Below the pieces are notes generated by a model. That model was not told the DNA's origin. It worked only from the letters and a program-made list of their open reading frames with translations, and searched no databases. Position numbers and translations under genes: made by a program. A stretch of DNA of 64,000 bases, from contig CDROCS010001566.1 of assembly GCA_977020255.1 (NCBI GenBank), forward strand, positions 62,001-126,000, in the 5' to 3' direction. Below are positions 1 to 50,730 of the stretch, one piece after another (the stretch's first letter is position 1; each line of letters begins with the position of its first letter). Source of the stretch: Obrimoposthia wandeli (Eukaryota).

Positions 1-2
1 AC

Positions 3-52
3 CTCATGATGACCTTAAATGACCTTGATCTCATGATGACCTTAAATGACCT
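3..52. repeat. Short tandem duplication (CTCATGATGACCTTAAATGACCT x2) next to a Polinton TIR segment
   Basis: Two identical 23-mers at 3-25 and 30-52. Confidence 0.85.
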
Positions 53-270
53 TTAAAAGCGTGCATGTGTGTGGAGTGAAATTTCGTATAGGTGTATAGA
101 AAAATTTTCTACCCCCCCCTCCCAAACACTCAAAAAAATAATTAACTCTATATAACACCCTTTAAATTTAAAAATCTCATAATGCTCCCAAAATTTTGAT
201 TAAGGTCCTGAGAGGTCAAAACATTAGAGGAGAGGGGGTGTGTGGATTAGACCGGACACATCCACCTACT
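50..270. repeat. Polinton TIR-derived segment: subterminal module plus inverted terminal 30-mer
   Basis: 50-95 matches 27973-28015. 50-215 matches the reverse complement of about 42455-42628. 241-270 is the exact reverse complement of 27841-27870 (AGTAGGTGGATGTGTCCGGTCTAATCCACA). Confidence 0.9.
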
Positions 271-352
271 TACATTCATTCTATCATCACTATCATCCTC
301 TCAAAAGTAAGTATTTTTAAAATTTATTTTATATTTAATGAATTTATTTTAT

Positions 353-594
353 ATGACGAAAATTATATTCACGAGAAACGGATCGCAAAAGTGGACCATG
401 AAGGGTCCTGTAGATGATGTGGACGATGTCGACTTGGATGCCCCACCGGTTGAAAAAGGTAAATTTTGTTGTTTTTAAAAAATGTAATTTTAATTTAACA
501 ATGATTAGTGCCACAGCGCCAATTTCTATTGCGCCATGGATGTCAAAAACAAATGATGATGATTGAAAAACGCCAAATGACAAGAAAAGCATAA
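353..594 (+). CDS. Putative small spliced ORF of relic 1 (candidate intron 459-508)
   Basis: ATG at 353, open to GAAAAAG|GTAAAT. A 50-nt AT-rich GT..AG stretch follows and the frame continues to TAA. An alternative acceptor exists at 516. Confidence 0.3.
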
Positions 595-759
595 GGAAAC
601 AAAAGTAGAAGAAGAATGCTAAAGTTTTTAATGTCTTCTGAGCAATCTGCTCTGTCTCCACGTCTTCCTTCTACTTCTTCTTCTTCTGTTTTGTCTCCTT
701 ATTCAACTAATTAAAATAACATTTTTAGGATATTAACGACATAAATGATAATTATCCCG

Positions 760-812
760 ACTGCGACAGCTGCCGGTAACGCAGGGCAGTCTAACTCTTG
801 GAATGGGGTCGT
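760..812 (+). ncRNA. Candidate structured RNA / cis element, copy 1
   Basis: GC-rich 53-mer repeated at 5436-5489 with 5 substitutions and 1 indel, all compatible with one pairing model. Confidence 0.45.
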
Positions 813-1541
813 AAGTCAAATAAATCAAGAGGTTACCCCTTACTTTTTAAACCAGGGACACCTGTTGGGTCCCCTGTAAATTCACTAGACAATTTTATTG
901 TAAACGAAATATACTCGGGTTTTGAAAATATCCTATTTAAAAAATATTTTAATCAACTTAAGAAAGTTAAAAATCAAAATATTGATTTAAGTAAACTAAA
1001 AACAAACGGTAAGCGCGGTAAATGATTTCGACAGAAACTACTTAAGTTGAGAAAATTGCCAGCTGATATAACAAGATTTGCAAATTTAGTAGGATCTTGC
1101 AAACCCATTATTATTAGTCCAGGTCTGAAAATTACAGATCTAGCAAATAAATTATATGAAGTCTTTGGGACTGACCAAATTTATTTTAACCGTAACGGTA
1201 TGCCCTTTGAAAAGGAAGCTGTAATAGGCAATGTTTTACATAATGGGGCTATTATCCATGGATACCCTAAAAGTCGTGGAGGAAGTAACTTATGTACATT
1301 GTACAAGAATTACACTAACGTTAATCATGGAATCGAAAGTGTTAGTGTAATGCTTAAATATTATAAATTTAAAAACGGTTTTATTTGTCCTCAATGTGAT
1401 GTGTTATATTGTATTGATTATCATACATTTTATAATGATCATAAGGATCATCTAACGTATTTCCAGTCGAAAAATTCAGCATATAAACGTAAAGTAATGA
1501 GCGTATCAACAATAATCAACAAAAAAATAGTAAAAAAATAA
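798..1541 (+). pseudogene. Ubiquitin-like domain (ends RGG) + B-box-like zinc finger ORF; ORFs 798-1025 and 1047-1541 are in one frame split by TGA 1023-1025
   Basis: IIISPGLKITDLANKLYEVFGTDQIYFNRNGMPFEKEAVIGNVLHNGAIIHGYPKSRGG aligns to the ubiquitin pattern. ICPQCDVLYCIDYHTFYNDHKDH fits CxxCx4CxxC...HxxH with one C>Y change. Confidence 0.6.
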
Positions 1542-1559
1542 TATTTTATCAAATTCGAA

Positions 1560-4500
1560 CATTAATAATTTTGATGAAGAGTTTGATGTGGTAGACTCGC
1601 GGGAACCGGATAGTGTTGTAGAAATTATTACTAATCCTGAAGTTGTAATTAATGAACCTTTAAGCCCTTATCAAATTACTAATGAAATCATAAATAATAA
1701 TAATATTGATGAACGTTTAGACCAGGACGAGTTTATAACAGAAAATGATATTTTCTACTAGCTCCTAACTATTAGGGATGATGACTTTGATATTATTGTT
1801 ACAATTAATTCAGATAATACTTAAAACTTTTAACAATCAAATAGGAGGTGCAATTCAATCAAAACTTGTTTTCGTTGTTAGTGGGTTAAACATGCTTAAG
1901 CTATTCATAACAATACTATGCTAACTGAACTTATTAGCAGTATAGATATGTTTGGTCCCTGTAAAATACAGTTTGGTGTTGAAACCGAATTTGTCAATAA
2001 TAATATTTCTGAACAAGATTTTATCCCAACAAGAACAGTTGAGCTCAACAATAAAATTGAAATTTATAAAGATATGAGCTCGGGATGGTCAGTATTTAAA
2101 ATACTGTTGGTATCCTTTATATTTACTGCACTGTCAAGCGTAGCAGGATCATCATTTATAAAAACCCCTGTTGCACTTGCTAAAACATTATCTATAGTAA
2201 ACGTAAATAATACTGATGATCAGTGTTTTAAATACGCTGTTCTCAGTATCCTACACTATAAAGATCACAATCCAAACAGACATAGAGTTGAAAACTATAA
2301 TGATTATTTAAATGAGCTAATGTGCGAGCCTGGTCCTATGAGGATAGACTGCATCAAGGCGTTTGAAAAACTCAATAATATTGAGATAACAGTATTCCTC
2401 TATAAACCTACAAAGGTAGTCAAAGGTCATCAAGTAGTCATCTAGTGTTTAAAAACCCAGATGTTAACGTTATTTATAGAACAAGTCTTAAGCAGTACGA
2501 AAAAGTAGTGAACTTGTTGCTGTTGGAATATAACGGTAATTATCACTATACAGGGATTACAAACCTGAATAAACTTTTAAATACTCAAAAATATAATGTA
2601 CGTCTCTTTTGGTATGATAAATATTTTTTCGGTTTTCAAACCACGGTCTCATATGACAAACACAGGGCACATTGTAATATTAATACAGATTTAACAACCT
2701 TGTTTACAATGCCTAAAGAGATCAAGTGTCGGTTTACTGATTGATCTAAATCTGTTGCGCCACCATTTGTTGTCTATGCCGTCTTTGAGTCAATACTCGA
2801 GCCGCATAATACTTTCAAACACATTCACAAAGAAATATCTATAGGGATGATTTTGAAAAACAACACTAATAACCCAATAAAATACTTCAGTTATTACGGT
2901 CTGCAGTGTGCTAAAACCTTTGTAGATAAATTATCTAAGTTGATAAATTGTGAAGTTTCAGATTTTTGGATAAATAGTATTAATGTTCCCATGTCTTTTA
3001 TTAATAATGTCATGTTGAACTTTAGAGATTGTACTAATTGCTATATATGTAAAAAATTAAACGATCACATGATTAGAGATCATGATCATATCACGGATAA
3101 ATACTTGGGTGCGGCATGCAACAAATGCAATTTAAATCGCAAGTTTGCCCAGAGACCAGTTTTACCTGTGGTGTTTCATAACCTCATGGGTTATGATATA
3201 AATTATATTTTAAAATATTCTGACTTAAAAGGTAAATCCTTTTTAATTATCCATAAATCAAGTGAAAGGTTCATATCCCTCCGTATAGAGATGAAGAGAG
3301 GGACATTGAAATTCATTGATTCATACCTTTTACAACGTCAAGTCTGGAATCCTTAGTTTCATACTTGCCAAGTTGTCCTTATACTACATAATACCTAAAC
3401 CCTAATATTGCAGCAAGTAAGGTGGTATTTCCATATAAATATATCAGTGGCGTTGATAGGCTTATGGAGAATCAGTTACCTGCTAAATCTGAATTTACAT
3501 CCCGAATCACTGATCAACAATATAATGAAGCCCTAAGGATGTGGACCGTATTAGGGTGTAATACTATTAAAGACTACAAGCTCGAGTATATGAACCTTGA
3601 CGTGTATTTGTTATGTGATGTTTTTGAGGCCTTTAGACAGAAAGTAAGGGATGATGATAGTATCCTCGGTTTCAGTTGGGCTAGTGCATTAAAAACGTTA
3701 GAGTATGACGTATATTTATTTCATGATCCCAAAATGTATAACATGTTTGAGGCAGGGATCCGGGGTGGGATGACTTTCATCAATAAACAATACGTTAAAA
3801 CAACAGATGAAACTTACTCCTATACATTAACACCAATAACCTATATGGCTGAGCCTTGAGTCAACCGTTACCACATACAGATTTTACATGTGTATATGAC
3901 AGTTTTGAAGCGATAATTGAGCTTATAACTGAGAGGGATATTCACAGTAATAGGCAGAACTTAAATCTTAAAGAACATGGATACTTGTTGGAGGTTGATT
4001 TACACATACCCATCCTTATCCATGATACACTTGATGACTTACCGATTGTGCCTAATAGAGAAATCTCTCCCGGCTCAAAAGCTATAACAATAAGTACATC
4101 ATACACTCACAACTACTCAGAGGGTACTACTGCCTTTGATAAAGAGCTTTATAAACTCAAAAAAGAACTCAGAATATGGTAAGACGGTAGAAAATCTTAA
4201 AAAACGTAAATATATTCGTTTTACCAAGAATGGCCGGTAGTTCACTGAACTTGTTTCAAGCCCTTGGTTTAAGAAGCATACCCAAATAACTGACAGTCTC
4301 AATCTTTTATTTATGCAGAAGAAAGAGATTTGTCTGGATCGGTCCTCATATATTGGTCAAGCTGTGTTGGACTTATCTAAACTACATATGTACCAACTAC
4401 AGTACAGTGAGCTTGACTGGTATCGTAAGTAATATCATTGTGATATCAACATAGTTGCGATGAATACAGACTCGTTTTACTTAGAGGGTAAGCATGTAGA

Positions 4501-4915
4501 TAAAGATGTCCTCTTAAAACAAATGATTAAAGATCACATGTTAGATACCAGTTATTACCCACTAACACATGAATTATTTAACTATTCTCATTGAAATGTG
4601 ATTGGAAAGTTTAAGTTGAAACCAAGGGGACAGTGCTTTATGATGAATGGGTATTTCTGAAACCTAAATGCTACTCCTTAAAACGAGTATGAGTGCAAAG
4701 GGTATATCCCTTAAACAAACCGATATCAGCATTAAATCAAGTTTTATATCGAGGATGAAATTATAACTGCCGGTCAGACGCGTAATCATCAATTATTTAC
4801 ATCGTTTAATGATAAAATTGCGTTAAGGTATTGTGACGATAAAAGGGTTTGGATTGAGAAACACAAATCCGTCGCATATGGACACTATAGTCTAAGATAT
4901 GTGTATAAAATCTAG
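1560..4915 (+). pseudogene. POLB: Protein-primed DNA polymerase B (Polinton), many stops and frameshifts
   Basis: Motifs CFKYAVL, VVYAVFES (Exo I), RDHDHITDKYLGAACNKCN, FHNLMGYD, FIDS, DVYLLCDVFEAFR, GIRGG, YGKTVEN, NTDS, KPKCYS and DDKR...AYGH. An acidic N-terminal extension ends at QIGGA. Confidence 0.95.
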
Positions 4916-5146
4916 AGCAACCTCTTGAAAGTATTGATTAATATCCTTTTTCTTATTGTAATAAACAGTCATTGTATATATCTTTTTAAACGTTAGTATG
5001 TATATTTTTATTGATGTTTATTTTTTAATACACTGTATGTATCATAACCATGTCTTGACTTCTTACTAGCTACTCATTTCATTGGATAATTTCAACAAAT
5101 TATCAATATATATATACACCTTTCAATCAATTTCTCATTATTACAA

Positions 5147-5380
5147 ATGACTACTTCAAAAGAGAAATCGCAAGCTTTCCATGATAACCTGAGTCCAACC
5201 TTGATGGCACAGTATTCTGAAACATACTTTCACGTATTTGTTACACCAGAACATTTTGTCAAAAGGATTGAAGAACTTTATATGTATCACCTGCTTAATG
5301 GAGACTTGGAGCCTAAAGTTGCAACAATCATTAAAGTAGAGGAAAGTATGGATTGTGATGATGAATATAATTATGTATAA
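5147..5380 (+). CDS. Hypothetical 77-aa Polinton accessory protein
   Basis: ATG-initiated ORF preceded by ATTGG (5081) and TATATATA (about 5108), like the other Polinton promoters in this window. Confidence 0.5.
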   Translation: MTTSKEKSQAFHDNLSPTLMAQYSETYFHVFVTPEHFVKRIEELYMYHLLNGDLEPKVATIIKVEESMDCDDEYNYV

Positions 5381-5435
5381 ACATAGACATTTTTACTAGA
5401 CTCCTAATATAAACAATAACCTTTGCAAGATTAAA

Positions 5436-5489
5436 ACTGCGATAGCTGCCCGGTTATGCAGGACAGTCTAACTCCTGGAATGGGGTCGT
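5436..5489 (+). ncRNA. Candidate structured RNA / cis element, copy 2
   Basis: Near-identical to 760-812; lies 55 nt after the stop of ORF 5147-5380. Confidence 0.45.
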
Positions 5490-5752
5490 GGTACTAAGTA
5501 AATTAAATAGTTGTACATAAAATCTTGGGACGGTCAATTGTGTTAAATTTCAAAATTTTAATTTAATTGTTAATTTTTAAAATGTATCTACTGTAATAAA
5601 TTTAAAAATCTACGCAAAATGTTATTTACATACAAAATGTCTACGTTAATTTGAATCACTATGCAAAATTTAACTATATACATAATGTGTACGTAAATTT
5701 AACCTACATCATCGTAATTGGAAGCATAAGACCAATCTGTAGAATTGAATAC

Positions 5753-5912
5753 GTAAAGTGTCGGTTCAAAAACAATAGCACACAAAGCACCCCTCCTAGA
5801 ACAAGAACGAAGAGCAAAGTACATCTGGATGCGCTTAGTCATACATATGTATTTCATTCCTTGTTCTAGGAGGGGTGCTTCGTGTGATTTTAATTTAGAA
5901 CCGACACTTTAC
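5753..5912. mobile_element. MITE-like inverted repeat element (about 160 bp)
   Basis: GTAAAGTGTCGGTTC...AAGCACCCCTCCTAGAACAAG pairs with CTTGTTCTAGGAGGGGTGCTT...GAACCGACACTTTAC. Confidence 0.75.
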
Positions 5913-6989
5913 ACTTCTACTGTTGAATATATTTTAGAAGTGTTTAACTCATCTGAAAAAAAATCAGTAAACAATGTAAGAAAAATACAATTCCTATGAC
6001 GTACAGCTAAATCTTGTTATTTTATAACTGCGATATAGTCATTAGAATTATTATTTAAAATAAAAGAAAGTTTAAGCAAATATTCACAAAACTGGTTCTT
6101 ATTGTTTTTTAAAATCCATTTAAACTTAATCAAAATACAGTATTTTATCATAAATCAAAATGAAGTGACAGTTTCAGATATTGTAAAAACTAAAATAAAA
6201 TTTTATGAAAATTCAATTTTGTTCTCAAATTTTTTAAAATCAGAAAGTTAGCAGGCTTTTGATGTCAAGCATTTAGTTGTAGAAAAATTCCACCGCCAGT
6301 TTTAGCTGAGTGGCTTTGTCTATGGGTATTCTTGGCATCAAATTCATCAATGTTCACTATCTGATCTGTAAACAAAAATTCTTTTAAATATAAGGTAAAT
6401 GAAATGTATATAATAAATTGGAGAAGTCATTACAACATAAATCATAACGAGTCTGCCAACTTTTCAAATCTTCCAAAAAAATATTTCACTTTTTTATAAC
6501 AGAGAACACTTCAATTAATTTTCGGCATATCAAAATATTTTTACTATTATTCAGTACAAATTTATTGTTGTCATTTATTATCAAAAAAAATTAATAATAA
6601 TTTCGGTTTTATGAAAAAGTGAAATTTGAGTTTCGAAGTTATTAAGATCGAAAAATTAAGATTTTGTTGTAATAAAAAACCACCTTTATTTTAACCGTAT
6701 ATTGCAACCATTTATAATATTAAAAAAAAGTCTTATCCAATTATCTACAAAAAAATTATAAATAAATATTATTATAAATATGTTATAACCTCATCATCTG
6801 GCGTAAAATGAAAATGTCTGTCAATAGCATTTTTTTAAAATTTCTAAAATATTGAAATTATACAGTCACATAAAATACTTTCAAGCAATCCTTTTATATG
6901 TTAGAATAAGGAAAGTAAAAAATAAAAAATGAATATATATATATATATATATAGACGAGGAATTTCCTCTCAGTAAAGATTATAAATTA

Positions 6990-8519
6990 AAAAAAAAATT
7001 ATTTAAAAAACTAAGTAATTTAAGACTTTGAAAATGTGTTTCTAAGTTAAGCAAAAATTGTAAAAAAGGCCCTTGGAAAAATAGTATTTTGAACGAAATC
7101 TTCAGTAAACAGGGAAGTACACAATCAGCGACACATTCAGTGAAATTGAATGAAATCGCCAGTAAACAGGGAAGTACATTGCACAAGTCAATATTCAGCT
7201 TTAACTAACAAGTGAGGTACAGTCATCCTAATTGCTCTGCTGATAATAGTCATTATAGTATCGCAGCCACACCCGCTCCATCACGCATTACAGTTGTGCC
7301 GAGGATAAACTGACATCCAGCCGGATACTCCAACCGCGAAGTAATAACCAACCTCCGGCCTTCCACCAGAGTCCCTGCACAGCGGTAATCGCGACAGCAC
7401 ACGGTATAAGCTGTCGGATATCGTCAGACCAGTTGAGAGGATCTCAATCAAGTATATAAAGACGATTGTTATTCATTTCATCGCACAATTTTAGATTGTT
7501 ACAATAATTGTAAGTGGAATTTGAATCAAAACAGATAAGTGGAAACAAAAGCAAGCCAGCCGACGAACGCGTTACACATGTGGAAAATCGGAGCCAATCT
7601 ACGTATTGAAGGATTTCACTGAGAAATTGGTATTTACGGACGTATTAAGAAATTAGCAATTATTGTGTTGAACATAAATTGTTCATTTCGTAATCACAAT
7701 CTTACGATCAATTACTTGAAATTGTCGAGCATAAATGGTTCCGATTGAATTAATCATTTGTTTATTAAAATTATTTAACTAGAATAGCACCAGAGGACAA
7801 TCAGATCCAACTACTTGAGACCGAGACTCGAATAAACAGTCTGTTGAAGCTGAGTATAAGAGGATTTAGAAGAAAAAAGTGTAATTGATAGTTAATTTTC
7901 ATCGGATATTCAGTAAAGGAATAACCTGAATAAATAAGTAAAATCTGAAACCATCTGATTGACTTAAGTCTAGCAACGTATCCTATGACAAAGACAAGAG
8001 AAACCAAGTAGAAATTTTAAGAGTATTGCGGCACTCGGATTAAGTTGTGTAAAGGTTTTGTAAACACATTCAGTTATCTTGTATGATAAAATACATTTGT
8101 TTAACCATAAAACGTACAAGTTATTTTAAATCCACTCCCGATTAAGAACGACTAAGATACTTTTTCAAGGTCGAGACATAATTTGTTAGACACTATCCTA
8201 AGTCCTAATATATTCAAAAGGTTACTGTCAGCGCCGATTAAGTCTGGATTAATGTTGCCTATTTTCTAGTCTTGGCTTTGCTAGACTATTTTTGAATTAA
8301 AATAAAATTCAGCAAAAATAGCTTATTGATTCAGCTCCACACAACACAACAATATGTTTAGTGCATTTTACGTTATTCTATGCACTACTCTTAACACATC
8401 ACGAAAGCCTTCAGAGATTAGCATAGGTAGTCCATGTCCATCTGTAAGCATTATGGCTACAGAAGTCACGTAAGGGGCCTCCGTACGAGGATTCTAAAAG
8501 TTAAAAGAAATCCCCAACA
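6990..8519 (+). repeat. Dispersed ~1.5 kb non-coding repeat family (solo-LTR-like), copy D
   Basis: The 3' block GTAAGC..GCTACAGAA.TCACGT.GGGGCCTCCGTACGAGGATT...CCCCAACA is shared with 47757-47880, 56270-56369 and 58999-59090. Start is approximate. Confidence 0.6.
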
Positions 8520-10811: not shown

Positions 10812-13279
10812 AGTAGGTAGAAGGATGGAGTCTAGAACACTTGACACCCTGTGTGTGCACACAAGGTTTAAGGGGGTCACACCCTAAGGGTCTAACTCAG
10901 AAAGGTTATGAAGGTATGGTTGTGACCCTCTATGGTCGGTCAATATACCCAAGGGGTTGTGGTCGTCCATAGATGAAAGGGTCGGACTCAGTTATGACTT
11001 GAAGGTTTGCAGGTATGATTGTGACCATCTATAGGGTTATGGTCGTCCATAGATGAAAGGGTAGGGCTCAGTTATGATTTGAAGGTATAATTGAGGTCAT
11101 CTATAGTTGTCCAACACATCTAAAGGGTTATAGTCGTCCATATATGAAGGGGTCCGGCTAAAGACAAAATCAAGTTTTAAATATCAAGGTTTTAGTACAT
11201 GGTTTGAATCATCTTTAGAAGGAGAATTCAACCATAAAAGTATGGTCGACCATAGATGAAAGGGTTTAAATAAAATTGGAATTTTAAAGTTTTAAGTATA
11301 GGGTTATGATTGTCAAATTTTTTTTATGATCGTTCACAAGTTAAAGGTCATATTTGGAACAAACATGATAATTTTATTACATGGTTGTATTTGTCTATCA
11401 AAATTGAGTTCATAAGTCATGAGTAAGTGAGGAAGTTTATGATAAATGCGAATGTGTGATTTACAAAAGATTAAAGGCAGCCCACATGCAAAATATGATG
11501 GCACGATTACCGAAGTTCAGATTTGAAGAGCCACTTATGGCGTTTGCAAGAGTTGGTGTGGATTTTACGGGACCTTTTTTGACAAAACAAGGTTGAAGAC
11601 AAGTACGAGCCAAAAAAATATGATTGTTTATTTATTAATGTTATTCATTAATTGATAGTATTAATTATTAATTTTATAAACTTTTATTAAAATTTTAGTT
11701 ATTACAAAAGTAAAAGGAAGGGAATAATTAAAGCAAAAAAATTGTAAAAATATGTGCAAGTGAGTTAATATTTTGTATTATTCTATTATTTTTAAATTAA
11801 AAAAAGTATTTTAGTAATTGTTTGTTTTAATTGAGGTACATTTTTTTAATATAATATTTTTTATTCATAAAAAAAACTTGTATATTGTTTTTATTTTAAT
11901 AAATTATTTAAAATTAATATGAATAGTAAAGCATTTGAAATGTAAAATTCTTGACATTGTTTTAATACATTAATTGTAAATAATAAAAATTTTAAAGGTT
12001 TTTTTTAAAGTTTCACTCAGATTTTACAATAATCATATTAGTCTTTGGGATATACGTCGGATATACGTCAATCTTATGAAAATACTTAGAGTAAGTGGAT
12101 TATTTATTAAAAATTGGTAATTATTGCAATTTTTAAATAAATTGTATATTTTTCTTTTATGTTTTAAATCAAATTCGTTTAATTACAGCAATAACAACAA
12201 TAAAAATTTTGTGTACATTTAAATATTTATTATAAATAGTAAAATATTTTGAGTTTATTTAACAATTTTGCTTAAATTTTATATTAAAAAATTTCATTTC
12301 AATATCATATTTTAAAAATATATGTAAAAATAAATTTTGTTTGATGTTTGCGTTTAAAAAAAATGTTTAAATAAACTAATAAAATTAATAAAAATTTTTC
12401 GTAAATTTAAATATTTGTGAAAAAAAAAGAAGTAAAATATTTTTGAGTTTATTAAACATTTTTATCTCATTTTTATATTAAATAATGGTATTTTAATATT
12501 TTATTTTAAAAACCTGTTAAATTAAAATTTGATTAACTTTAACAAAAACTAACAAATTAATTTGGCCCAAATTTAAATTAAAATAAATAAACAAGTATTT
12601 TTATTTTTCAGCAGTACACCTGAACTTATGCATTACTTATGACTTATGAACTCAATTTTGATAGACAAATACAAACATGTAATAAAATTGTTTACATTAT
12701 TAAACGCACAATATTTTGACAATCACAACCATGAACTTAAAATTCTGAAATTCCACTTTTTTAAAACCCTTTCATATATGGTCGGTTTTTCTCCTTCTAA
12801 AGATGATTGAAATCATGTACTAAAACCTTGATTTTGTATTTAGCCCGACCCCTTCATTTATGGACGACCACAACCCTTTAAATGTGATGGCCAATCATAG
12901 TTGACCTCAATTATAACTTCAAACCATCAGTTATATCTAAACCCGACCTCTTCATCTATGGACAATCACAACCTTTTAGAAGTTTTGTCCAACCATACTT
13001 TCAAACCTTCAACTCATAACTGAGCCCAACCCTTTCATCAATGGGTGACCATAACCCTTTAAGTGCGTTGGTCAACTAAAGGTAATTACAACCATACTTT
13101 CAAAGCTTCATAACGTTTCTAAACCAGACCCTTATGGTGTGGCAACCCACCCTTGTGGTATTACACAATTACTCCCGGTATGAAGTAATCACTTTTTGGT
13201 ATGCGCATATATGCATTTGTTAGTGTGCGCACAGGGGTAAGGGGGGACAAGTGTCCTAGACTCCATCCTTCTACCTACT
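10812..13279. mobile_element. Non-autonomous element with ~620-bp TIRs and Polinton-like AGTAGG...CCTACT termini
   Basis: The termini AGTAGGTAGAAGGATGGAGTCTAG are perfect inverted copies. Imperfect inverted similarity extends over about 10812-11430 vs 12625-13279 and includes degenerate ~60-bp subrepeats. The terminus is 19/29 identical, ungapped, to the Polinton terminus at 27841. Confidence 0.8.
11443..11635 (+). pseudogene. BEL/Pao retrotransposon integrase fragment
   Basis: KCECVIYKRLKAAHMQNMMARLPKFRFEEPLMAFARVGVDFTGPFLTKQG*...KK/YDCLF matches the BEL pattern Q-MA-LP...GVDxxGP...KxY-CLF. Confidence 0.8.
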
Positions 13280-27535: not shown

Positions 27536-27840
27536 TTGTCAAATGCAAAATCAACACTGCATAATGATATAGAAAATTCTGATGGCCCATTATGTTTACA
27601 CTTTGATAGTAAACGACATTTTGATAAATGTATTTGTAAAATGGTAGAAAGATTAGTGATATGCGTTTCTGGAAAAATTACTCAAAATTATTGGCTGTTA
27701 GGACTCTTCATAATGGAAAAGGTAAAACCATATACGATTCGCTAAAGTCCGTAGTTGTTGAATTTAATTTAGCTGAAAAAATCGTGATGAAAATATGCGA
27801 TACTACATATGAAAACACTGGGATTCGCGGAGCTGTAACA
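27536..27840 (+). pseudogene. DDE DNA transposase fragment truncated by the Polinton (superfamily uncertain)
   Basis: LHFDSK...VERLVICVSG...KLLAV..L.NGKG...CDTTYENTG; the coding remnant stops where the AGTAGG terminus begins. Confidence 0.6.
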
Positions 27841-28020
27841 AGTAGGTGGATGTGTCCGGTCTAATCCACAACCTCACTGTCCTTTAAAACCGTGTATGTG
27901 TGTGAAGTGAAATTCCGTGTATGTGTGTAGGAAAAAAATTAAAATAAGCAACGAATAGGAGGGGGTACCACTGTCCTTTAAAACCGTGCATGTGTGTGGA
28001 GTGAAATTTCGTATATATGT
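27841..28020 (+). repeat. Left TIR with tandem duplication of the subterminal module (27875 and 27969)
   Basis: CACTGTCCTTTAAAACCGTG(T/C)ATGTGTGTG occurs twice, 94 bp apart; the inverse is at 42575-42633. Confidence 0.9.
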
Positions 28021-28303
28021 GTCTCCATTCCACTCCCTCTTCACCCACATTTTTAAAAATTTTACTTTGAAATTTACCACGAATCTTGAAAGTGGTTAGA
28101 GAAGACTACGGAAATCCATATTGGACACGGCGGCTTATCGCAGACGAGATTTTAAATAATATATTACTACTATTTTTAAGAAAAATTTTAGATTACTACA
28201 TGTTAAATATTTAGGTCAGATTTATAAGATAAAAATTAGATCACTATATAATTTAGAGGAGTAAAAACAAAATACGAGTCAAAATTATTTTTCAAAACAT
28301 TTA

Positions 28304-28738
28304 TTAAACATAAAACAACATATTGGCTTCACTCAAAGTCCAAAGAGGCTGCATTTTCTCATCATCAGCAAAATATCCATTGAGACGTATTGATATATTC
28401 CATAGTTCTTCATCTAGAATTGGAGCAATCAAATATCCTAGATCATCTTTAAAATCCAGACTGGGATCAGTTTCAAGCTGGAAACAATTTCCTTCATATA
28501 CATAATCAGGAATGTAAAATCCCAAAATATTTTTCAATTGATCAATATCAGATGTTGTTAAAATTTCGATGAAAGATTTATTCTCCACTTTTGATATTTT
28601 CCCAGGATTCATAACTCGTATAATTTGATGCCTCTTTAATATATTACATAGTTTTCCTTTTGAAATTCTTTCTGGATAATAAAAATTTCCTACACATCTC
28701 TTATCCATACTAAAATAAGGAAACTGATTAAAAAACAA
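28304..28738 (-). CDS. Hypothetical 144-aa protein, paralog A (possible OB-fold/SSB-like)
   Basis: Intact ORF (true start may be an internal ATG); its C-terminal half aligns with the neighbouring ORF at 28851-29333. Confidence 0.75.
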   Translation of the reverse strand: MFFNQFPYFSMDKRCVGNFYYPERISKGKLCNILKRHQIIRVMNPGKISKVENKSFIEILTTSDIDQLKNILGFYIPDYVYEGNCFQLETDPSLDFKDDLGYLIAPILDEELWNISIRLNGYFADDEKMQPLWTLSEANMLFYV

Positions 28739-28850
28739 CGTTTATAAAAAAATACATATAAGATACAAATATTTTAAAAATAAAACTGAATATTAAATGA
28801 AAGAAACATAGTAAAACCGATTACAATTTATTATATGCAAAAGAAAAAAG

Positions 28851-29333
28851 TTAAAACATAGAAATATGAGCACGTTCAATTTTCCACATAGGTAACTTTG
28901 TCCCCATTTCATCTGTCTTGTAACCATAAAGTCGAATTGTTACAGTCCAATGCTTCTTTTTCTAAAACGCATCAATATCAACATATCTTCCATAGTCATC
29001 TAGAAATGCTTCATCGGGTCCTCGGATATAAAATTCGTTCTTATTGAAAGTAAAATTTGGAACTGCCTTTTCAACTTTCTGTTTAAGATATTGAAAATCT
29101 GGTTTTTGAATATTTCATAGATAGTAGCTGAACTTTCTTCTTTCAATTGTCACAGGATTTACTAATGCAATCAGTTGAGCCTTCTTCAAGAATCTGACTT
29201 AGTATTTGAAATATTGTTTCACTTCTTCATACATATCCTTATCCGATTCTTCAAACATTTCTAAATCTTCGTCACCGCTTAATATCCGTTGGCTATCGTC
29301 CATCATTGATAATTGTCTTTGATATGAATGCAT
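28851..29333 (-). pseudogene. Hypothetical protein, paralog B of 28304-28738, with stops (missed by the ORF track)
   Basis: Manual translation: ...PDFQYLKQKVEKAVPNFTFNKNEFYIRGPDEAFLDDYGRYVDIDAF*KKKHWTVTIRLYGYKTDEMGTKLPMWKIERAHISMF*. Confidence 0.75.
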
Positions 29334-29394
29334 TTACTGTGATTTTTCCTTCAATGGCGCATTCTTTTATTCTAATTTCTAACAAAGACATGAA

Positions 29395-29555
29395 TCTCAT
29401 TGGTTAATATAACTAAAGCATTGAATTTGATTGGACTAAATCCATATTAAAAATCAAATTTGATTGGAAGAAATATATTATCCAATTATCATAGGTTTGC
29501 AAGATAATTACAAGAAACGTGCAATAAAAAAGCAGGTTCAGACATATATAAAGAA
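29395..29555. promoter_or_regulatory. Divergent promoter with four CCAAT boxes and a TATA box
   Basis: ATTGG at 29399, 29430 and 29463; CCAAT at 29482; TATATAAA at 29545-29552 upstream of ATG 29583. Confidence 0.65.
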
Positions 29556-29582
29556 GATTTTATAGAATACAATTTTAGTCTA

Positions 29583-30079
29583 ATGAAACTCGTAAATATA
29601 AATTATAAAGGTAGAACAGAAGATGATGTTTCGTACTTACCATTCAATGAATGGAAACCGAAACAATATGTGAAAAAGTTTGACAATTTCACAGTTGTTA
29701 TGTTTCCAACAGGTTAGTTTTTTAATTTTCATATTGAATTCTTTTAGGAAATTGTCGTGTTATGGTATGCAAAGTACCTATTATTGGGTTCAATTTACCA
29801 TTTGGAATTCGAATCACTGCAATACAATCAATACATATTTCGGCTAATCTTGGGAAACAGATAAATCTTTTTAAAACTGCAGAGAAAATGAAAAAAGAAT
29901 GTATGTTTGAACCAGAAATTTTTCCTGCTCTCAGTTATTTGAAGTTTAAACCGCTATGTGTAAATATATTTTCCAGTGGTAAAGTTATGATATTTGGATT
30001 GAAAATTTTTGATTATCCAGACATTGTTGATTTGATTTTAGAAAATATATCTTATTACATCTTGTTATCTTTTCTATAA
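29583..30079 (+). CDS. TATA-binding protein-like, 153 aa; join(29583..29712,29748..30079), 35-nt intron
   Basis: The C-terminal repeat FEPEIFPALSYLKFKPLCVNIFSSGKVMIFGLK matches TBP YEPELFPGLIY...LLIFVSGKVVLTGAK. Splicing AG|GTTAGT..TTTTAG|G restores the N-repeat TVVMFPTGNCRV. The spliced ORF has no lesions. Confidence 0.85.
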
Positions 30080-30098
30080 ACAAACAAGTTTAAACTTA

Positions 30099-30380
30099 TT
30101 GTTTCAAATGAATAATACTATAAATAGAGACAATGAAGTGGATAGTCTTGCGAACGAAATATTTTCTGGAAAAATTAAGGGTAAAGACATTTTATCAGAA
30201 TTAAAAAATAATGATATAACAAGAGATAACATTGAAATATTGGTTAGATCACACATTATTCGAGAATTTAGAAATCGTACACAAATAAATAAAATTATAG
30301 CCAAATATTCATTAATTAATTTTTGTATTTCATCTACAATAGCTCTAACATTGTACATTTCAATAAGGAAACTTCTATGA
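30099..30380 (+). CDS. Hypothetical 93-aa protein with a C-terminal hydrophobic segment (ATG probably 30108)
   Basis: Intact ORF between the TBP-like gene and the ATPase; YSLINFCISSTIALTLYISI is hydrophobic. Confidence 0.6.
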   Translation: MFQMNNTINRDNEVDSLANEIFSGKIKGKDILSELKNNDITRDNIEILVRSHIIREFRNRTQINKIIAKYSLINFCISSTIALTLYISIRKLL

Positions 30381-30417
30381 TAATATAAACAATATTTAAA
30401 ATGAAAGAGTATATGCA

Positions 30418-31067
30418 ATGGAGTTAAATATTAATGCTGTATTTCAAATAGTTGGTCTCAGTGGAAGTGGAAAGACACATTTCGTATGTAAATTGTTGCA
30501 AAATGAATCTCTTTTCAAATCTAGTTTCAAAAATAAATTTATTGGCATCATGGTGGAGGAGGGGAAAGTGGATTAACCAAAACAGAAGTTTGCAAGTTGA
30601 AGGGAATACAATTTATTGAAGGATTTGATGCAAATTGGTGTGAAAGATTGAAAAAAGAAGATGTAATAATAATTGATGATTTGTATGAGGAGGCTAACAA
30701 GGAATCGGACTTTAAAAATTTATTTACAAAGATTGCAAGACATCGTGAAGTAACAGTTATATTTATCACTCAAAATCTTTTTCATCAAGGAAGTCACCAT
30801 AGAACTAGAAATCTTAATGTACATTACTTAGTTTTATTTTAAAATCCTAGAGATCAAACAGTTGTTGATTTCGTGGCCAGACAGACGTTTCCTCAAAATA
30901 AGAACTTTCTAGTTGATTCATTCCACGATGCTGCTAAAAAAGCATATGGGTATATATTTATTGACTTTACACAAGCTTGCCCAGATGATTTACGTGTTTT
31001 AACCGACATATTTAGTTCTAAGGGATTAACTGTTTATAAACAAATAGAGAACAATCATAAAAGATAA
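30418..31067 (+). pseudogene. ATP: A32-like FtsK/HerA genome packaging ATPase (frameshift near 30540, TAA at 30840)
   Basis: Walker A GLSGSGKT, Walker B VIIIDD, ITQNLF, VLF*NPRD and YGYIFIDF. Confidence 0.95.
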
Positions 31068-31244
31068 ATTTACAATACCTTTTAAGAAGTTGAAAGTAAA
31101 GCGTAAAGCAAAGCCTAAAAAATCAAAAAAAGAATCATTAAGAAAAAAGAAGTGAAAAAATTAATCAAATCTGTAGTTAGAAATAAAAAAAAACTTAAAT
31201 GGCTTCAAATATAAACAATATTCAAATTGAACCTTTTTATTAAA

Positions 31245-31500
31245 ATGAAGAAAATACAAAAAAGCATACCCTATTTTAAAGCTTTAGTCAAAGCCTCTTC
31301 TCATAAGAGAATTATTATTCTTAAAGCATTTTCATCTTTTGTTGTAGATGATTTATTGGAAGTTTTGTATAATATTGTTTTGGATCGAGTAAAAGTTGGA
31401 AATCGGAAAAATATATTAAAGAAATATAGAAAAACTCTTCTAGATATTGCTAGATACGTTCATAAACAATTATTTCTAAAATCAGCTAAAGATATGGGTG
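31245..31500 (+). pseudogene. Basic Polinton core-like protein, C-terminus apparently lost
   Basis: KALVKASSHKRIIILK....VDDLLEVLYNIV....LKKYRKTL fits a recurrent Polinton ORF pattern; a Lys-rich remnant lies upstream at about 31070-31215. Confidence 0.55.
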
Positions 31501-31551
31501 CTAACCCTTCTTTACCTAAATTTAAATTTTCTTTCTATTCAAATTGTTGTA

Positions 31552-32575
31552 ATGTAGAAGATATGGTTCAATCCAAAAGATCCAATTGGCTACACGGGAG
31601 TTTCAAAATTAGCAAAAGAACAAAACAAAATTACAAGAAAACGCAGAAATGGCTGAGTGGTCAGTTAGCCTTCAGTCTGAACAAGCCGATGAAAAGAAGG
31701 TTTCCAACTAGAGCTTACAAAACCAACGGTCCTAATAATTTATGGCAAATGGATTTGATGGAGATGATCCCATATTCTTCCATTAATAAGGGATATCGAT
31801 ATATTTTAACATGTATTGATGTATTTAGCAGGTTTGCTCGTGTATTTCCAGTCAAAGCAAAGTCTTCAATAGCTATGCTTGAAGCCATTAAAGAAATATT
31901 AAAAGAGGACATTCCACAAAATGTACAAACTGATTTAGGAAAATAATTTTATAATTAGCAAGTTCAATCATTATTTAAGCAAAATAATATAAATCACTAC
32001 TCTGTGTTTTCACAGTACAAAGCAGCAGTAGTAGAAAGATTTAATCGTACTTTAAGAGATCGAATAAAAAAGTATTTCACGAAAGAAGGAAATAAAAAAT
32101 GGATCCAAGTTTTACCTAAAATAATACATGCATATAATCCCTCTGAACACATAGGTCTCAAGAGAATGAGACCTGTTGATGTTACTAATAAAAACTCTAT
32201 GGATATTTGGATGGACAAGAATAAAAAAGAAAATACTAAAAAACCTAAATATAAGAAAAACGAATATGTTCGAATTTCGAAAATTAGCTCTACTCCATTT
32301 ATTAAAAACTTTGATCAGAATTGGAGCGATGAAATATTTTATATAAGTAAAATTGATCAAAAGAGTAATCCAATAATGTATACTATTGAAGATGCTGACA
32401 ATAATATCTTTCACGGTAAATTTTACGAGAACTACAAGTAATATCTAATAAACCTAGCGTTTTCCGTATTCAAAAAATATTAAAATCTAAGGGTGCCAGT
32501 AAACATAAACAATACTTTGTTAAATGGCATGGTTATTCAGACCCAACTTAGATATCAGCATCTAAAATAATATGA
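31552..32575 (+). pseudogene. INT: Retroviral-type DDE integrase with C-terminal chromodomain (about 6 lesions)
   Basis: WFNPKDPIGYTG, WQMDL, IDVFSR, QTDLGK*F, VVERFNRTL, NWSDEIF and chromodomain YFVKWHGY. Confidence 0.95.
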
Positions 32576-33614
32576 AGTCTATGTATATGGTGTTACCTAG
32601 TAACGGATGCCTGAAGACTCAACCAGATAATGACGCTAGTAACTTTATTATCGATTGGGAAAATCCTATAAATCTCCAAGGATTCGGGAAGCGGCTTTAA
32701 CATATTTTTTTTATTATTCTCCAATTACTATTAGAAAAAACTCACATATTTCGTTTACAAAAGTAAATCAACTGAAGTTGTGATTGGTTTTGATAGTAAA
32801 GGACAATTCTATTACAATTGTATAGATAAAGAAGTGAAAGTAATACTAGAAAATAACAAAGTCAGATGTAAAAATCGATTAAAATATCTTCAAGTTATTA
32901 AAATTAACTTTGAATCTAAAAAAGAAGCTCTTCAATTCAGTTTTGATAGTGAATAAACAGTAGCTCGTAATAAACGGGATATAGTCTCATATAAATCGGT
33001 TAGAAATGTTCCTGGTAAAGTAGCAAAAGTGATGTTACTTGAAACGAGACCAAAGACTGTAGTGGAACTGAAAAAGTTTTCAAAAGATTATAAAATAGAT
33101 AGTGAAGTAGGATTTATGTAAATTAATACAGAACGAATGTAGTGAATATTTCGATAAATGTGAAACATTAAATGGTAAATTAATGTTTACAGTAAAGAGC
33201 AATATAAAACGAGTTTCATTTGATGATAAACTTGCTAAAAACCTTGGTTTAAACAGAAATACCTTTGAAACCCATACAATAAAAACCATAAAAGCTAAAA
33301 ATAAGGCAAAACTTTTAAATGCTGTTAATAATTTATATATTTATACTAATTTAATAGAACCAACGCTTGTAGGAGGACAGCGAGTTCCACTTTTGAGAAC
33401 AATATGGATATCTAAAAATGAAACTAGATATGGGGACGCTGTCGGTATGTGTATAGATCAACCAATGTATCTTCCAGTTTCTCTCTTTTCTTTAAACAAT
33501 ATTGAAGTAAATATTAGAGATGATTCCGGACAACTAATAGATTTCACGTACGGGGCCAACACAAGTTTAACAATACATTTAAGAAAACAAAATGACGAAT
33601 CTAGCATTAATTGA
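32572..33614 (+). pseudogene. PX: Minor capsid protein (penton, single jelly roll), frameshifted
   Basis: N-terminus YMVLPSN...PDNDASNF; C-terminus LYIYTNLIEPTLVGGQRVPLLR...PMYLPV...IEVNIRDDSGQLIDF...TIHLRK. Confidence 0.9.
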
Positions 33615-33960
33615 GGCTTATAGTCAAAGCCAACAAGGTGGAGAATTACCATATTTTGTTGGTAAACAATATGGATCTGGCTGGCTTAGAACATTAGTTA
33701 GATTTGCCTTTCCTCCTTTAAAGAGACTCGGGCGAATTATATCAAAATTAGGAAAGTATTACCTTTCATCCAAGGACAATAAACTAATACCAACTTTTAA
33801 GAAGCATACACTTGATAATGTTTTACCTGAAGTTGCTAATTTGATTAGAAAACATAAATCAAATAAAAGCCAAGAAAGTAGTGGATTTAAACGTAAAAAG
33901 AAGCAAAAAATCAATATAAACAAACATAAGAAAGTTCAAGGAACAATATTTGCAAAATGA
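33592..33960 (+). CDS. Conserved Polinton virion core-type protein (QxGG / GxG motifs, amphipathic helix, basic tail)
   Basis: YSQSQQGGELPYFVGKQYGSGWLRTLVRFAFPPLKRLG; sits directly before MCP with an ATGA overlap. Confidence 0.8.
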   Translation: MTNLALIEAYSQSQQGGELPYFVGKQYGSGWLRTLVRFAFPPLKRLGRIISKLGKYYLSSKDNKLIPTFKKHTLDNVLPEVANLIRKHKSNKSQESSGFKRKKKQKININKHKKVQGTIFAK

Positions 33961-35186
33961 GTTGCGCCAAAACCGAATTGTGTATTTTTGATAAACCACT
34001 TCCACAAGTAGTTGTAGATAATGCTTCCTTTGAAGAAATATTTCTAGTTAACTCAGTTTCAGGAACCACTTTAACCGATTTAGAATTTAATATTAATGGT
34101 TCCAATAGGGAATATTTAGATTTGAATGATACTTTGCTTTATGTTCAAATAAAAGTATTAAATCGGGATGGTACTAATTTAGAGGAAAATTCCGATGTAA
34201 CACCTGTAAATTATCTCTTTAATTCTTTATTTAGTGTTGCCATTGTTACTCTAAATAATGTCAAAATTGAAGGTGGAAATTATTCCTATGCTCATAAAGC
34301 TTTGATTGAACGTCTTTTGAATTATAGTACTGATACTCAAAATACTAATTTGGCAACCATTGGTTATGATAAAACAGTTGCAACTCGCAAAGAATGGATT
34401 GCGGGTTCTAAAGCTTACGAAATGTGTGGGTCTTTGAGATTAAATTTCTTTGAACAACCGAAATATTTAATTCCCGGTGTTAATGTACATCTTCGTTTGA
34501 AACGTAATAAATGGAATTTTTCTTTGATAAGCACAGACGTTCTAAAACCTAGACTTGATATTTTGGATGCAAAATTGTATATCCGAAGAGTTAAAACGGA
34601 GCAATCAGTTTTAATGGCATCTAATATAGGAATGGAAAAAAACAATGCTTGTTATCCTATTAGAGAAACTAAACTTATATCCTATTCTTTAGGTACGGGT
34701 ACACAAGCTTTTCATAAGAATCAAATATTTGGTGATGTAAGAATACCGAAATTCATTTTAATTTCTTTTCAAATAACTGCAAAATTTCTAGGAAATTATA
34801 CGACAGATGCAACTCAATTTGACAATCTTAATGTAGGTTCAGTGACACTTTCAAGAAATACTGATTATCGCGAAACATATAAAACAGATTTCGAAGGTAA
34901 CGCTTATGCTTTGGCTTATACGCAATCTTTTATTCGGAATTTGGGTCAACTAGATAAAAATATAAACAATGGTATTTCTTTCACTGACTTTAAAACTGGC
35001 TGCCCGTTCTTCACATTTGTTTTGGCACCAGACTTTGATATAAACCAATGCCAACTACCAAAGGATGGAAATTTACGACTAGAAATTAAGTTCAATGCAG
35101 CTTTAACACATCCTACTACGGTTCTTATTTACGGAGTGTTTGATTCGGAAATACAAATCAATAAAAACAGAACTGTCATATTATAG
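33957..35186 (+). CDS. PY: Major capsid protein (double jelly roll), 409 aa, open ORF
   Basis: CAKTELCIF..P.PQ, LEFNING...YLDLNDTLLYVQIK, ERLLNYS, QPKYLIPGV and LRLEIKF..AL......IY. Confidence 0.95.
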   Translation: MSCAKTELCIFDKPLPQVVVDNASFEEIFLVNSVSGTTLTDLEFNINGSNREYLDLNDTLLYVQIKVLNRDGTNLEENSDVTPVNYLFNSLFSVAIVTLNNVKIEGGNYSYAHKALIERLLNYSTDTQNTNLATIGYDKTVATRKEWIAGSKAYEMCGSLRLNFFEQPKYLIPGVNVHLRLKRNKWNFSLISTDVLKPRLDILDAKLYIRRVKTEQSVLMASNIGMEKNNACYPIRETKLISYSLGTGTQAFHKNQIFGDVRIPKFILISFQITAKFLGNYTTDATQFDNLNVGSVTLSRNTDYRETYKTDFEGNAYALAYTQSFIRNLGQLDKNINNGISFTDFKTGCPFFTFVLAPDFDINQCQLPKDGNLRLEIKFNAALTHPTTVLIYGVFDSEIQINKNRTVIL

Positions 35187-35187
35187 A

Positions 35188-35552
35188 ATGAAGTAAGACA
35201 TTTTTAAAATTTATATTTATTATTTTTTATTTAGTTCAGTACAAGTACAAGAATCAGCATAAAGGTCCTGGGTGATAAATTCAATGGAGTTTATCCAATT
35301 GATATGATCCCATTTTTTCAATCTGGAGGTTACATTATCAATACTCATACTTCGAATTTACCGGGAGAACATTGGATAGCTATTTATGTTAGAGAGTGGA
35401 CAATACATGTATTTGATCCACTTACAATGTATTATCCACATAAAATTGTTTCAACTATTCAAAAAGGATGAAGAAGAGTATTTTACAACAAGATACAATA
35501 TCAGGATCCTGCAACGAGAAACTGTGGAAATTTATGTATTTTATGGTTATCG
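35188..35552 (+). pseudogene. PRO: Adenain-like cysteine protease with a 42-nt intron (35193-35234), a 1-nt deletion and one TGA
   Basis: FNGVYPID, IINTHTSNLPGEHWIAI, VFDP and QYQDPATRNCG (His/Asp/Gln/Cys). ATGAA|GTAAGA..TTTAG|T gives MNSVQVQESA. Confidence 0.9.
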
Positions 35553-35829
35553 TTGCAAAACGATTAGTGTGTTATAAAAATAAATATTTTAAATGTTTTA
35601 TTTTGAATTATTTTTTTTAAATCCCTAAAAAATATAAGGTAAAATAATAAAAGACATAAGACGAATTTTTTTTAATACATTTATTAAACACAACATCACA
35701 ATGAGATCTGTCAGCAAAGATAAGGCCCAACCTAAAAATGTATTGAAATAACAAAAAGTTAGAGTCAATGTGCCATAGGGATCTAAAATTTTAAAAATTA
35801 AACTAAAAAAATCAAAAAATGAAAACCGT

Positions 35830-38800: not shown

Positions 38801-39203
38801 CATCGTGAATTCTAACTAGAGTCCATCCACTATTTAAACCGCTATAATTAGCAATTTTTTCATCTAGGTTTCTTCCAATTTCAGTTACAAAATTATCATA
38901 GAAAACAGTTGCTTTATGTAAAATTACCCAAGTTTTAGTCTCCTCATTGACATTTTTAAACTGCACTGTTGCGCAAATTTGAACCTTAGCCTGTTCTAAT
39001 TTAGTCACTTCTGATTTTAAAAGATTTTCAATATTTGAATCTACACCTACGTTTAATAAACTTTTATTTCCTAATGGCACCTTAACTATAACATATTTAT
39101 TATTTAGGTGATACTCTATAGTAGCACCGTTTTCTCTACGTTTTTTTGGTGGAACTTTATTAAGAAATTGGCCTCGCCTCTTTTTACCTACATTCACTGA
39201 CAA
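35830..39203 (-). pseudogene. POLB: Protein-primed DNA polymerase B (TAG 38286, frameshift near 37190, TGA 36715, TAA 35875)
   Basis: VYADFES, RDYDHVTG, FHNLKGYD, FIDS, GIRGG, YIDINNLYG, KLKSNSLFGK, GDTDSFF, RPKCY and DDKR..AYGH; the four ORF-track pieces join through three in-frame stops and one frameshift. Confidence 0.97.
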
Positions 39204-39700
39204 ACCTCCCCCTAATTGAACGGGAAGACAACTAGTTATATTAATAGCAGCTGAGGTGGAAGGTGCTGCTAATGGTGATGCTGCTGATGTTGAGGCAATC
39301 GCAGCTGTAGTAGTATATGATGCTGTAGTAGATGCTACCGCAGATGATGAGACAGTAGATGCTGCATTTGAAGTAGGAGTAGCTGAGGTAGGAGTTGACC
39401 TTACCGATGAAGAAGCGGCTGTTGCAGAAATTGAGGCTGCTGAAATAAATATATTAAAAAATAAATATAATTTTAAAAATTATTACCTCCAGGCGTGCTA
39501 ACATCGATGTAGGCACTCGCGATGGTGGAGGCATAGCTGTCGTAGCAGATGACGGCTGTATCAAGGTACTTCCTGAAGAAAAAAAAATATAGATATAATA
39601 AAAAATAAAATATATATAATTACAATTTTAAAAAAATAAATAAAAAAAACCTAATGAAGGCAATCTAACTGTAGCTGGTTGGAAGTCCCAAAGAAAGTGT
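39204..39700 (-). other. Putative spliced Ser/Thr/Ala-rich N-terminal extension of pPolB (candidate introns 39440-39486 and 39573-39650)
   Basis: The frame is open upstream of 39203 (AASISATAASSS...QLGGGLS). Two AT-rich GT..AG blocks separate GC-richer segments. Frame continuity across exons is ambiguous. Confidence 0.5.
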
Positions 39701-41640: not shown

Positions 41641-41713
41641 TATGTAACATAATAAATAAAGACAAAATAATATTCAAAAAATTAATTTTTTTGTGGAAGG
41701 ACCCTCTACCTGT

Positions 41714-42454: not shown

Positions 42455-42633
42455 GGCCTCTCAGGACCTTCTTCACGTTTTTGGGAGCACTATGAGATTT
42501 TCAATTTTAAAGGGTATTATATGGGGTTAATTAGTTTTTTTTGAGTGTTGGGGGGGGGGAAGGGGTAGAAAATTTATCTTTACACACATGCACGAAATTA
42601 AACTCCACACACGCACGGTTTAAAAGGACAGTG
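42455..42633 (-). repeat. Right TIR/subterminal region, terminal ~34 bp missing
   Basis: Reverse complement matches 27875-27930 and 50-215. Confidence 0.9.
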
Positions 42634-50660: not shown

Positions 50661-50730
50661 AATGGAAAGCTGAAAACGCGTTTGAGTAACAAGTCATAGA
50701 TTTATTAAACATTGCGCTATTTTAATTATA

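Follow-up and report, generated by a model that had tools for sequence, protein, structure and literature searches.

A GC-rich motif in the terminal repeats and the pPolB frame of one Polinton family of Obrimoposthia wandeli, a candidate TATA-driven RNA cassette

The motif, its carrier and its surroundings

The window, as we call the whole stretch of 64,000 nucleotides of Obrimoposthia wandeli DNA that was analysed (contig CDROCS010001566.1, positions 62,001 to 126,000), carries two plus-strand copies of a GC-rich motif at 760-812 and 5436-5489. These are identical in 48 of 54 aligned columns (E about 1e-14) and are separated by five substitutions and one indel, exactly as counted in an earlier note made from the sequence alone; no third copy was found in the 64-kb window. 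The complete motif is 57 nt long and has about 56% GC within DNA of 30-34% GC. A pattern search of the genome for more copies, as that note had proposed, returned 3,351 matches against 5 for a reversed control, and 2,344 genomic matches combine the motif with the word TATAAACA directly upstream (control, 1).

All of the motif copies examined belong to a single Polinton family, family A, which bears out the earlier assignment of the motif to a Polinton. The element is ~15.5 kb long and contains a TBP homologue, an ATPase, an integrase, capsid-like genes, a protease-like gene, pPolB and small ORFs, the capsid-like and protease-like names being given from gene order and motifs, with no Pfam hit. 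Integrase, ATPase, capsid-like and protease-like genes, pPolB and terminal inverted repeats (TIRs) are shared with the Polinton/Maverick (adintovirus) elements described in the passages of PMC8502044. Two of five larger regions hold a complete element, whose TIRs measure 551-583 bp and are 93-97% identical, and each full element has three copies of the motif: one in the left TIR, one at an internal site in the pPolB frame (site A) and one in the right TIR, the two TIR copies pointing outward. The remaining three regions hold site A and the right copy only, and site A was present in all 30 loci fetched via downstream pPolB DNA. Family A is young and star-like, with few lineage-level changes. 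Of the older, decayed element in the window, only the right part is present (Table 1).

Table 1. Features of the decayed family-A element in the window (positions of the window)
Feature	Position	Strand	Remark
Low-complexity N-terminal pPolB leader with a short intron at about 459-508; the 'small ORF' of the earlier note; broken here	353..759	+	splice sites deduced from the sequence
TATA-like word (TATTAAC in this copy), 29 nt upstream of site A	731..737	+	also coding, hence ambiguous
Motif, decayed site A copy in pPolB frame, lacking one base, with two private changes and a short deletion directly 3'	760..812	+	ATG at 803-805
pPolB relic starting at the motif ATG, with stops and frameshifts; ubiquitin-like N-terminal part followed by DNA_pol_B_2	803..4915	+	
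Small ORF between pPolB and TIR	5147..5380	+	sister copy has a TATA-type word about 40 nt upstream of the ORF
TATAAACAA, promoter-like word, 28 nt before the TIR copy	5408..5416	+	inner TIR boundary of older copies is the first T of the word
Right terminal inverted repeat of family-A Polinton, with terminal ~160-nt palindrome (5753-5912)	5408..5918	.	
Motif, right-TIR (site B) copy, outward-pointing	5436..5492	+	ATG at 5480, opening just five codons
Poly(A)-signal-like hexamers 3' of the TIR copy	5502..5521	+	ATTAAA at 5502-5507; second place CATAAA here, AATAAA in most copies

This anatomy replaces the earlier picture of two copies that bracket pPolB, each behind a small ORF: the second copy lies inside the right TIR, the first inside the open pPolB frame, and the left TIR holds a third. 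A miniature transposon with target-site duplications, which the earlier note had named as the contrary case, was rejected because the examined copies occupy the same fixed places of one Polinton family. The motif is a real, uncatalogued cis-element of that family, and its anatomy is now clearer than in the earlier note.

Several other features were recorded in passing. The palindrome at the extreme end of the TIR is near-perfect in young copies. A second, different Polinton family (B) occupies window 27840-42640, with TBP (29738-30079, plus strand), ATPase, integrase, capsid-like and protease-like genes and pPolB on the minus strand; it lacks the motif, and a fragment of its end lies at 47-271. 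The family-B end at 42390-42475 has a palindromic TATA followed, about 27 nt on, by an unrelated GC-rich two-hairpin block that is conserved among copies and whose fold does not exceed shuffles (z +0.4, -1.1); an E2F-like TTTTCGCG lies on the inner side of this end. A pair of long inverted arms at 10909-13104, spaced about 2.2 kb and containing internal repeats, is probably a separate TIR transposon, and exact tandem repeats of 449, 307 and 154 nt lie at 39561-40900, 50727-51333 and 55011-55437.

Site A and the promoter-like word

At site A the pPolB frame runs open across the motif. Ten site A copies were selected for long open frames, nine of them with the motif inside the fetched stretch, and 115-129 open codons precede the motif ATG in eight of these nine, a count that is partly by construction. 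In the four copies in which a donor was found, a 42-nt intron joins an upstream exon in frame to the motif ATG (one of the four has a stop in the exon), and the upstream 'small ORF' therefore reads as a spliced, low-complexity pPolB leader. These leader exons contain trinucleotide runs (Asp, Ser), which reach hundreds of bases in some copies (locus L106, 1370-1800; also L043, L040 and L012). An intron directly 3' of the motif ATG was dropped as a candidate, since copies do not share its donor and the frame needs no intron to stay open. The motif codons at site A are atypical, with G or C at 12 of 18 third positions versus a fraction of 0.29 in pPolB (p 0.0009), so that protein coding alone is insufficient to explain the site; in the TIR the same ATG opens five codons. 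The pPolB linker around site A tolerates large indels. By eye, the pPolB N-terminus (window 1026-1290; locus L103, 2196-5276) contains a ubiquitin-like stretch ending in LRGG and, later, an IGG/A site resembling an adenain cut site, with no Pfam hit; as a query against proteins of near length this N-terminus returned no relatives.

With respect to transcription signals, the gene strand of one element has 13 occurrences of TATAAACA and the opposite strand has one, where 1.4 per strand are expected; this lone minus-strand occurrence is that of the left TIR copy. The word precedes the ATG by 31-47 nt in 8 of 18 plus-strand ORFs and in none of 10 minus-strand ORFs, and families B and C as well as all six of the closest metagenomic relatives also have it on the gene strand. 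Both the family-A Polintons (locus L102, 4041-4343) and the family-B element of the window (29738-30079) encode a TBP homologue (Pfam TBP, E 8e-11), and a metagenomic relative has both a TBP homologue and TATAAACA; an element-encoded TBP with its own TATA variant may be worth a study of its own.

The TIR copies of the motif begin 28-29 nt behind TATAAACA. With the first base of the motif as +1, 58 of 65 TIR copies have TATAWR at -28/-29. At site A, 44 of 90 copies have it at -29; the word is also coding there and is canonical in only about half of the copies. Given a consensus TATA position of -32 to -28 in the passages of PMC5580651, the predicted start is the first base of the motif. Homology between site A and TIR copies begins abruptly at this predicted +1, the spacer upstream being unalignable; older left TIRs end exactly at the motif's TATA, and the TATA block is the least variable part of 94 old TIR copies (minor frequency 0.011). 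Behind the motif, ATTAAA is present in 57 and AATAAA in 53 of 65 TIR copies, and at site A a poly(A)-like hexamer, again also coding, lies at +65 in 76 of 90 copies. TATAAA itself is able to act as a poly(A) signal as well as a promoter word; that two or more TATAAACA sites are hundreds of bases away from the nearest gene end argues for a promoter. In the one element checked, the terminal genes end 56-87 nt upstream of the motif with no AATAAA in between, and they therefore probably read through the motif as 3' UTR. Among the TATAAA[C/T]A sites listed, the most stable following 57-mers are those of the TIRs (-22.6; all others -12.8 or weaker). Three read runs of uncertain kind, when aligned, carried the same variants with no GT..AG joint and were uninformative on expression. 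In planarians, smedwi-2 knockdown data show Polintons to be de-repressed (passages of PMC8532177).

Possible constraint, predicted folds and searches for relatives

Comparison of motif and flanks suggests that the motif is under constraint, although this evidence for selection is modest and shrinks with more data. In old TIR copies (30 found by flanks alone plus one young copy), common variants affect 3 of 54 motif columns versus 83 of 328 flank columns (p 0.0007). In 94 old TIR copies with poorly aligned flanks masked, the counts are 5/54 versus 15/90 (p 0.32), or 4/32 versus 9/22 when only G/C columns are considered (p 0.024). At site A, inherited variants fall in 3 of 54 motif columns versus 45 of 124 columns of the upstream linker, in a set partly chosen by the motif, and there is no clear conservation gap between the motif and downstream coding DNA (p 0.10-0.71; in another set, p 0.18 and 0.022). 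Six of 30 flank-pattern loci, five of them chance matches and one true but truncated, were left out of the analysis behind the former range because they had no pPolB downstream. Between site A and TIR, 3 of 54 motif columns differ versus 4 of 18 in the co-duplicated tail (p 0.06).

The two window copies fold no better than shuffles (z +0.40, -0.88). Majority copies are predicted to form a nested three-way junction, at -27.5 kcal/mol for site A and -22.6 kcal/mol for the young TIR, with z against shuffles of -3.56, -3.00 and -2.44. The earlier note had instead drawn a pseudoknot of four helices, P1 to P4. All four can indeed be drawn, but the pairing probability of P1 and P3 is ~0 in majority copies, where P1 and P3 together contribute -3 to -5 kcal/mol, a local hairpin that competes with them -10 to -13 and the nested fold in full -23 to -28 (energies computed without pseudoknot scoring); the nested helices of the earlier drawing sum to -3 to -11. 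In its original register P4 has a C-A mismatch in young TIR copies, which a shifted register removes. The arrangement of four helices in HDV order arose in 2/600 and 1/600 shuffles under search rules tailored after seeing the motif.

The substitutions had also been offered as structural support, since all appeared to fall in loops or to keep pairing. This argument loses its force across the family: the changes at columns 10, 30 and 42 are private or minor variants, and of the five only the loop changes at columns 22 and 24 of alignment A1 are true site differences (86/102 versus 96/126 copies). The pseudoknot pairs 98% of cells, is compatible with all common variants and has the variable columns 29, 30 and 57 outside its helices, while the three-way junction pairs 95% of cells and has pairs broken or shifted by common variants at columns 30, 50 and 57. 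Covariation, which the earlier note had put forward as a check, does not exceed shuffles for the pseudoknot (106/500 as high) or for the junction (score 0.066; 276/500 as high), and the 94 copies show 16 double changes in the junction against 13.9 expected, 5 of them still paired. Covariation cannot decide between the folds because family A is too young. On energy and covariation the pseudoknot of the earlier note is not supported, though its tolerance of the common variants makes it a conceivable fold.

Folded as DNA, the two strands of the motif are alike in how far they depart from shuffles (z -2.7 to -3.3), so that RNA is not singled out; as RNA, the plus strand is weakly favoured by its G-U-rich helices (z -3.4/-2.3 versus -2.2/-1.8). 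Separately, loop columns 19-24 (window 775-780 and 5452-5457), which differ between the sites, have a perfect 6-nt complement at +78 in 72 of 102 site A copies and at -20 in 40 of 126 TIR copies, the latter older ones; such complements have a chance of about 4-5% each and were spotted after the fact.

Searches against catalogued RNAs were negative. No Rfam hit covered the motif in window 1-8000 at E up to 5, in agreement with the earlier failure to match hammerhead, twister, pistol or hatchet, and Rfam covariance models gave no match over the motif in three undecayed loci at E up to 10. A tRNA or mascRNA type was rejected: ARAGORN made no call in any of three sources, a 7-bp closing stem exists in TIR copies only, with column 57 varying in 33% of 94 copies, and the motif loop lacks the UUC that a canonical T loop contains. 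Elements of the TURBS or HCV-IRES type pair through a loop to 18S helix 26, and the h26 region of the host showed no complementarity to the motif loop in three of three 18S copies, the best matches being of 8 nt and elsewhere. Likenesses to a myristoylation signal, a 2A peptide, a frameshift site, SL RNA, U1, 5S and HCV IIIe/IIIf were dropped on inspection.

Outside family A, the other Polinton families of the same genome gave one hit, in a locus also holding family-A DNA, and no motif of their own. The exact pattern had no match in viral or metagenome contigs and one chance-like match in bacterial genomes; BLAST against phages yielded only matches of 22-23 nt (E 2-6), and in viral contigs no relative came up with pPolB or capsid-like queries. 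Two motif models run on 80 of 482 metagenomic integrase loci gave a partial best hit at E 0.048, and nothing with the sequence-only model; the six closest loci lack the TIR and the pPolB 5' region, which makes this a weak test. A description of a structured RNA cassette in Polinton TIRs was found neither among the hits of the open-literature searches nor in passages of PMC8502044, PMC11071296 and PMC8547959. The terms 'promoter', 'noncoding', 'VA RNA' and 'ribozyme' are absent from the Polinton/Maverick (adintovirus) paper PMC8502044, and conserved promoter words are known from related virophages, according to passages of PMC8547959. The core of the earlier proposal, a Polinton cis-element, probably RNA-acting, that matches no catalogued family, holds as far as it is testable.

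A candidate RNA cassette and its alternatives

What the sequence shows is the triple occurrence of the motif in an element, where its copies lie, the upstream TATA with its spacing, the hexamers behind and the in-frame site A; transcription, fold and function of a cassette are inferred. Our tentative preference is for a TATA-driven structured RNA anchored at +1 and having a regulatory role, as opposed to a ribozyme. Transcription would start from the TATA box 28-29 nt upstream, such that the motif forms the first bases of the RNA, and this RNA would fold into a compact three-way junction of the regulatory, protein-binding kind. Each TIR cassette would then give rise to an outward-directed ~100-nt capped and polyadenylated non-coding RNA, and the two terminal genes would also carry the cassette as 3' UTR. 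More speculatively, the internal copy might mark a second start that yields a shorter pPolB mRNA, whose translation the fold would restrain, its AUG being placed where loop meets stem in one arm, and TIR RNAs would be potential competitors for any factor bound to the internal fold.

A serious though less likely rival, and the first to be weighed, is that the motif acts as DNA: inverted CTGC/GCAG half-sites in the TIR would serve a transcription or replication factor, the fold would be a by-product of the dyad, and site A would be a second site or a passenger. Adenovirus ITRs, whose distal part is GC-rich, offer a comparison. The position of the motif in the TIR, the equal DNA z values on both strands, the lack of covariation, the fact that the same repeated 4-mers generate both candidate folds, and the TATA with its unrelated GC-rich block at family-B ends all fit such an element. 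Three points speak against it: at both sites the homology begins, on its 5' side, with the very base predicted as transcription start; the directional TATA word faces outward, with poly(A)-like hexamers behind the motif; and the G-U-rich helices weakly favour plus-strand RNA.

Passive duplication is also a serious rival, but a weaker one that we consider rather unlikely. Some 75-100 bp would have been copied between TIR and indel-tolerant linker of pPolB not long before the expansion of the family, and their similarity would reflect youth and not function. The extension of similarity about 18 nt beyond the motif is consistent with this, as are the young, star-like family, the large indels of the linker and the weak result of the larger constraint test (94 copies); the lower divergence of the motif than of its tail (p 0.06) and the unalignable upstream spacer speak against it, and it leaves a CpG-rich island of 56% GC in AT-rich DNA unexplained at either place.

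A 3'-end, stability or nuclease-blocking (xrRNA-like) element that both terminal transcripts would carry in their 3' UTRs, TATAAA being a poly(A) signal or incidental, is very doubtful as an account of the motif. The closely spaced terminal genes without AATAAA in the one element checked, and the three-way junction with its sharp 5' edge, would suit it, and a 3'-end role for the TIR copies is possible. The P1-P2-P3 junction of flavivirus class 1 xrRNAs may have a counterpart in the motif, one predicted from energy and showing no covariation, and according to the passages of PMC7749634 these RNAs need a long-range pseudoknot of loop L3 and conserved 5' bases that pair into the junction. For the motif, a search of the flanks of 102 + 126 copies for exact words gave no conserved complement to the third-arm loop, and no conserved bases lie 5' of the first helix, the 5' flank differing between the sites. 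Site A, moreover, lies mid-ORF, and the distance of at least two TATAAACA sites from gene ends argues against a poly(A) signal.

A novel ribozyme, one of the two options of the earlier note and taken here as self-cleaving with an HDV-like double pseudoknot, fares worst. Helix order in the earlier drawing is the feature held in common with HDV-like ribozymes; it is rare in shuffles, its pairs accommodate the common variants, and 4 of 4 double changes in the 94 copies stay paired, as any double transition in a C-G pair would. HDV-like ribozymes have a 7-bp P1 starting G1-Y, a P1.1 formed by CC in L3 with GG after P1, and U..CG in L3 (passages of PMC6326823), with the catalytic C first in a J4/2 of C-R-R-A (passages of PMC6326823 and PMC10879173). 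The P1 of the motif has 4 bp (5 at most) and A as its first conserved base, the bases after P1 are C-U, L3 is purine-rich, and J4/2 is 0 nt with no C in the register that fits all copies, which confirms the earlier remark that the J4/2 catalytic strand and a pyrimidine-rich L3 are absent. With this core missing, the pseudoknot outcompeted in silico, no Rfam ribozyme matched and cleavage at site A expected to split the pPolB mRNA inside its coding frame, a ribozyme is highly improbable.

For the candidate regulatory cassette, three named systems serve as working analogies, and the motif is a member of none of them. HIV-1 TAR, ~57 nt long and encoded in terminal repeats, is a structured RNA that opens a TATA-driven transcript at +1, and the motif resembles it in length, predicted +1 place, TATA and terminal repeats, by analogy only; unlike TAR, it belongs to a DNA element, points outward, is predicted to be branched as opposed to a hairpin, has a third copy in a coding frame and has no known ligand. 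Adenovirus VA RNA is a Pol III product of ~160 nt with A and B boxes and a three-way junction, made by a linear, protein-primed dsDNA element. A small structured RNA (predicted here), a three-way junction and a linear protein-primed dsDNA element are points in common, whereas the motif has TATA and poly(A)-like signals, an A-box of at best 7/9, no clear B box and no Rfam match. The T4 gene 43 translational operator is a stem-loop with a UAAC loop near the start codon of a family-B DNA polymerase (passages of PMC3014915). The cap loop of site A also contains UAAC, a four-base match seen after the fact that we treat as a lead and not as evidence; the operator follows bacterial ribosome-binding logic in a hairpin of 16-18 nt, and the TIR copies of the motif have UUAU at that place.

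Extended one step further, the preferred cassette would combine a small non-coding RNA from both TIRs with a fold over an internal pPolB start codon into a decoy/operator circuit that sets replication timing, its ligand being the polymerase or an element-encoded RNA-binding protein. We regard this extension as unlikely; it would be the first RNA regulator of a Polinton. Gene control in Polintons is almost undescribed in the literature searched. Family A provides a promoter word, a TBP homologue that it encodes itself and about 3,350 genomic copies of a cassette; an RNA made from it, should one exist, would represent a small RNA of an endogenous adenovirus-like element, and the host genome would then have over two thousand outward-facing promoters.
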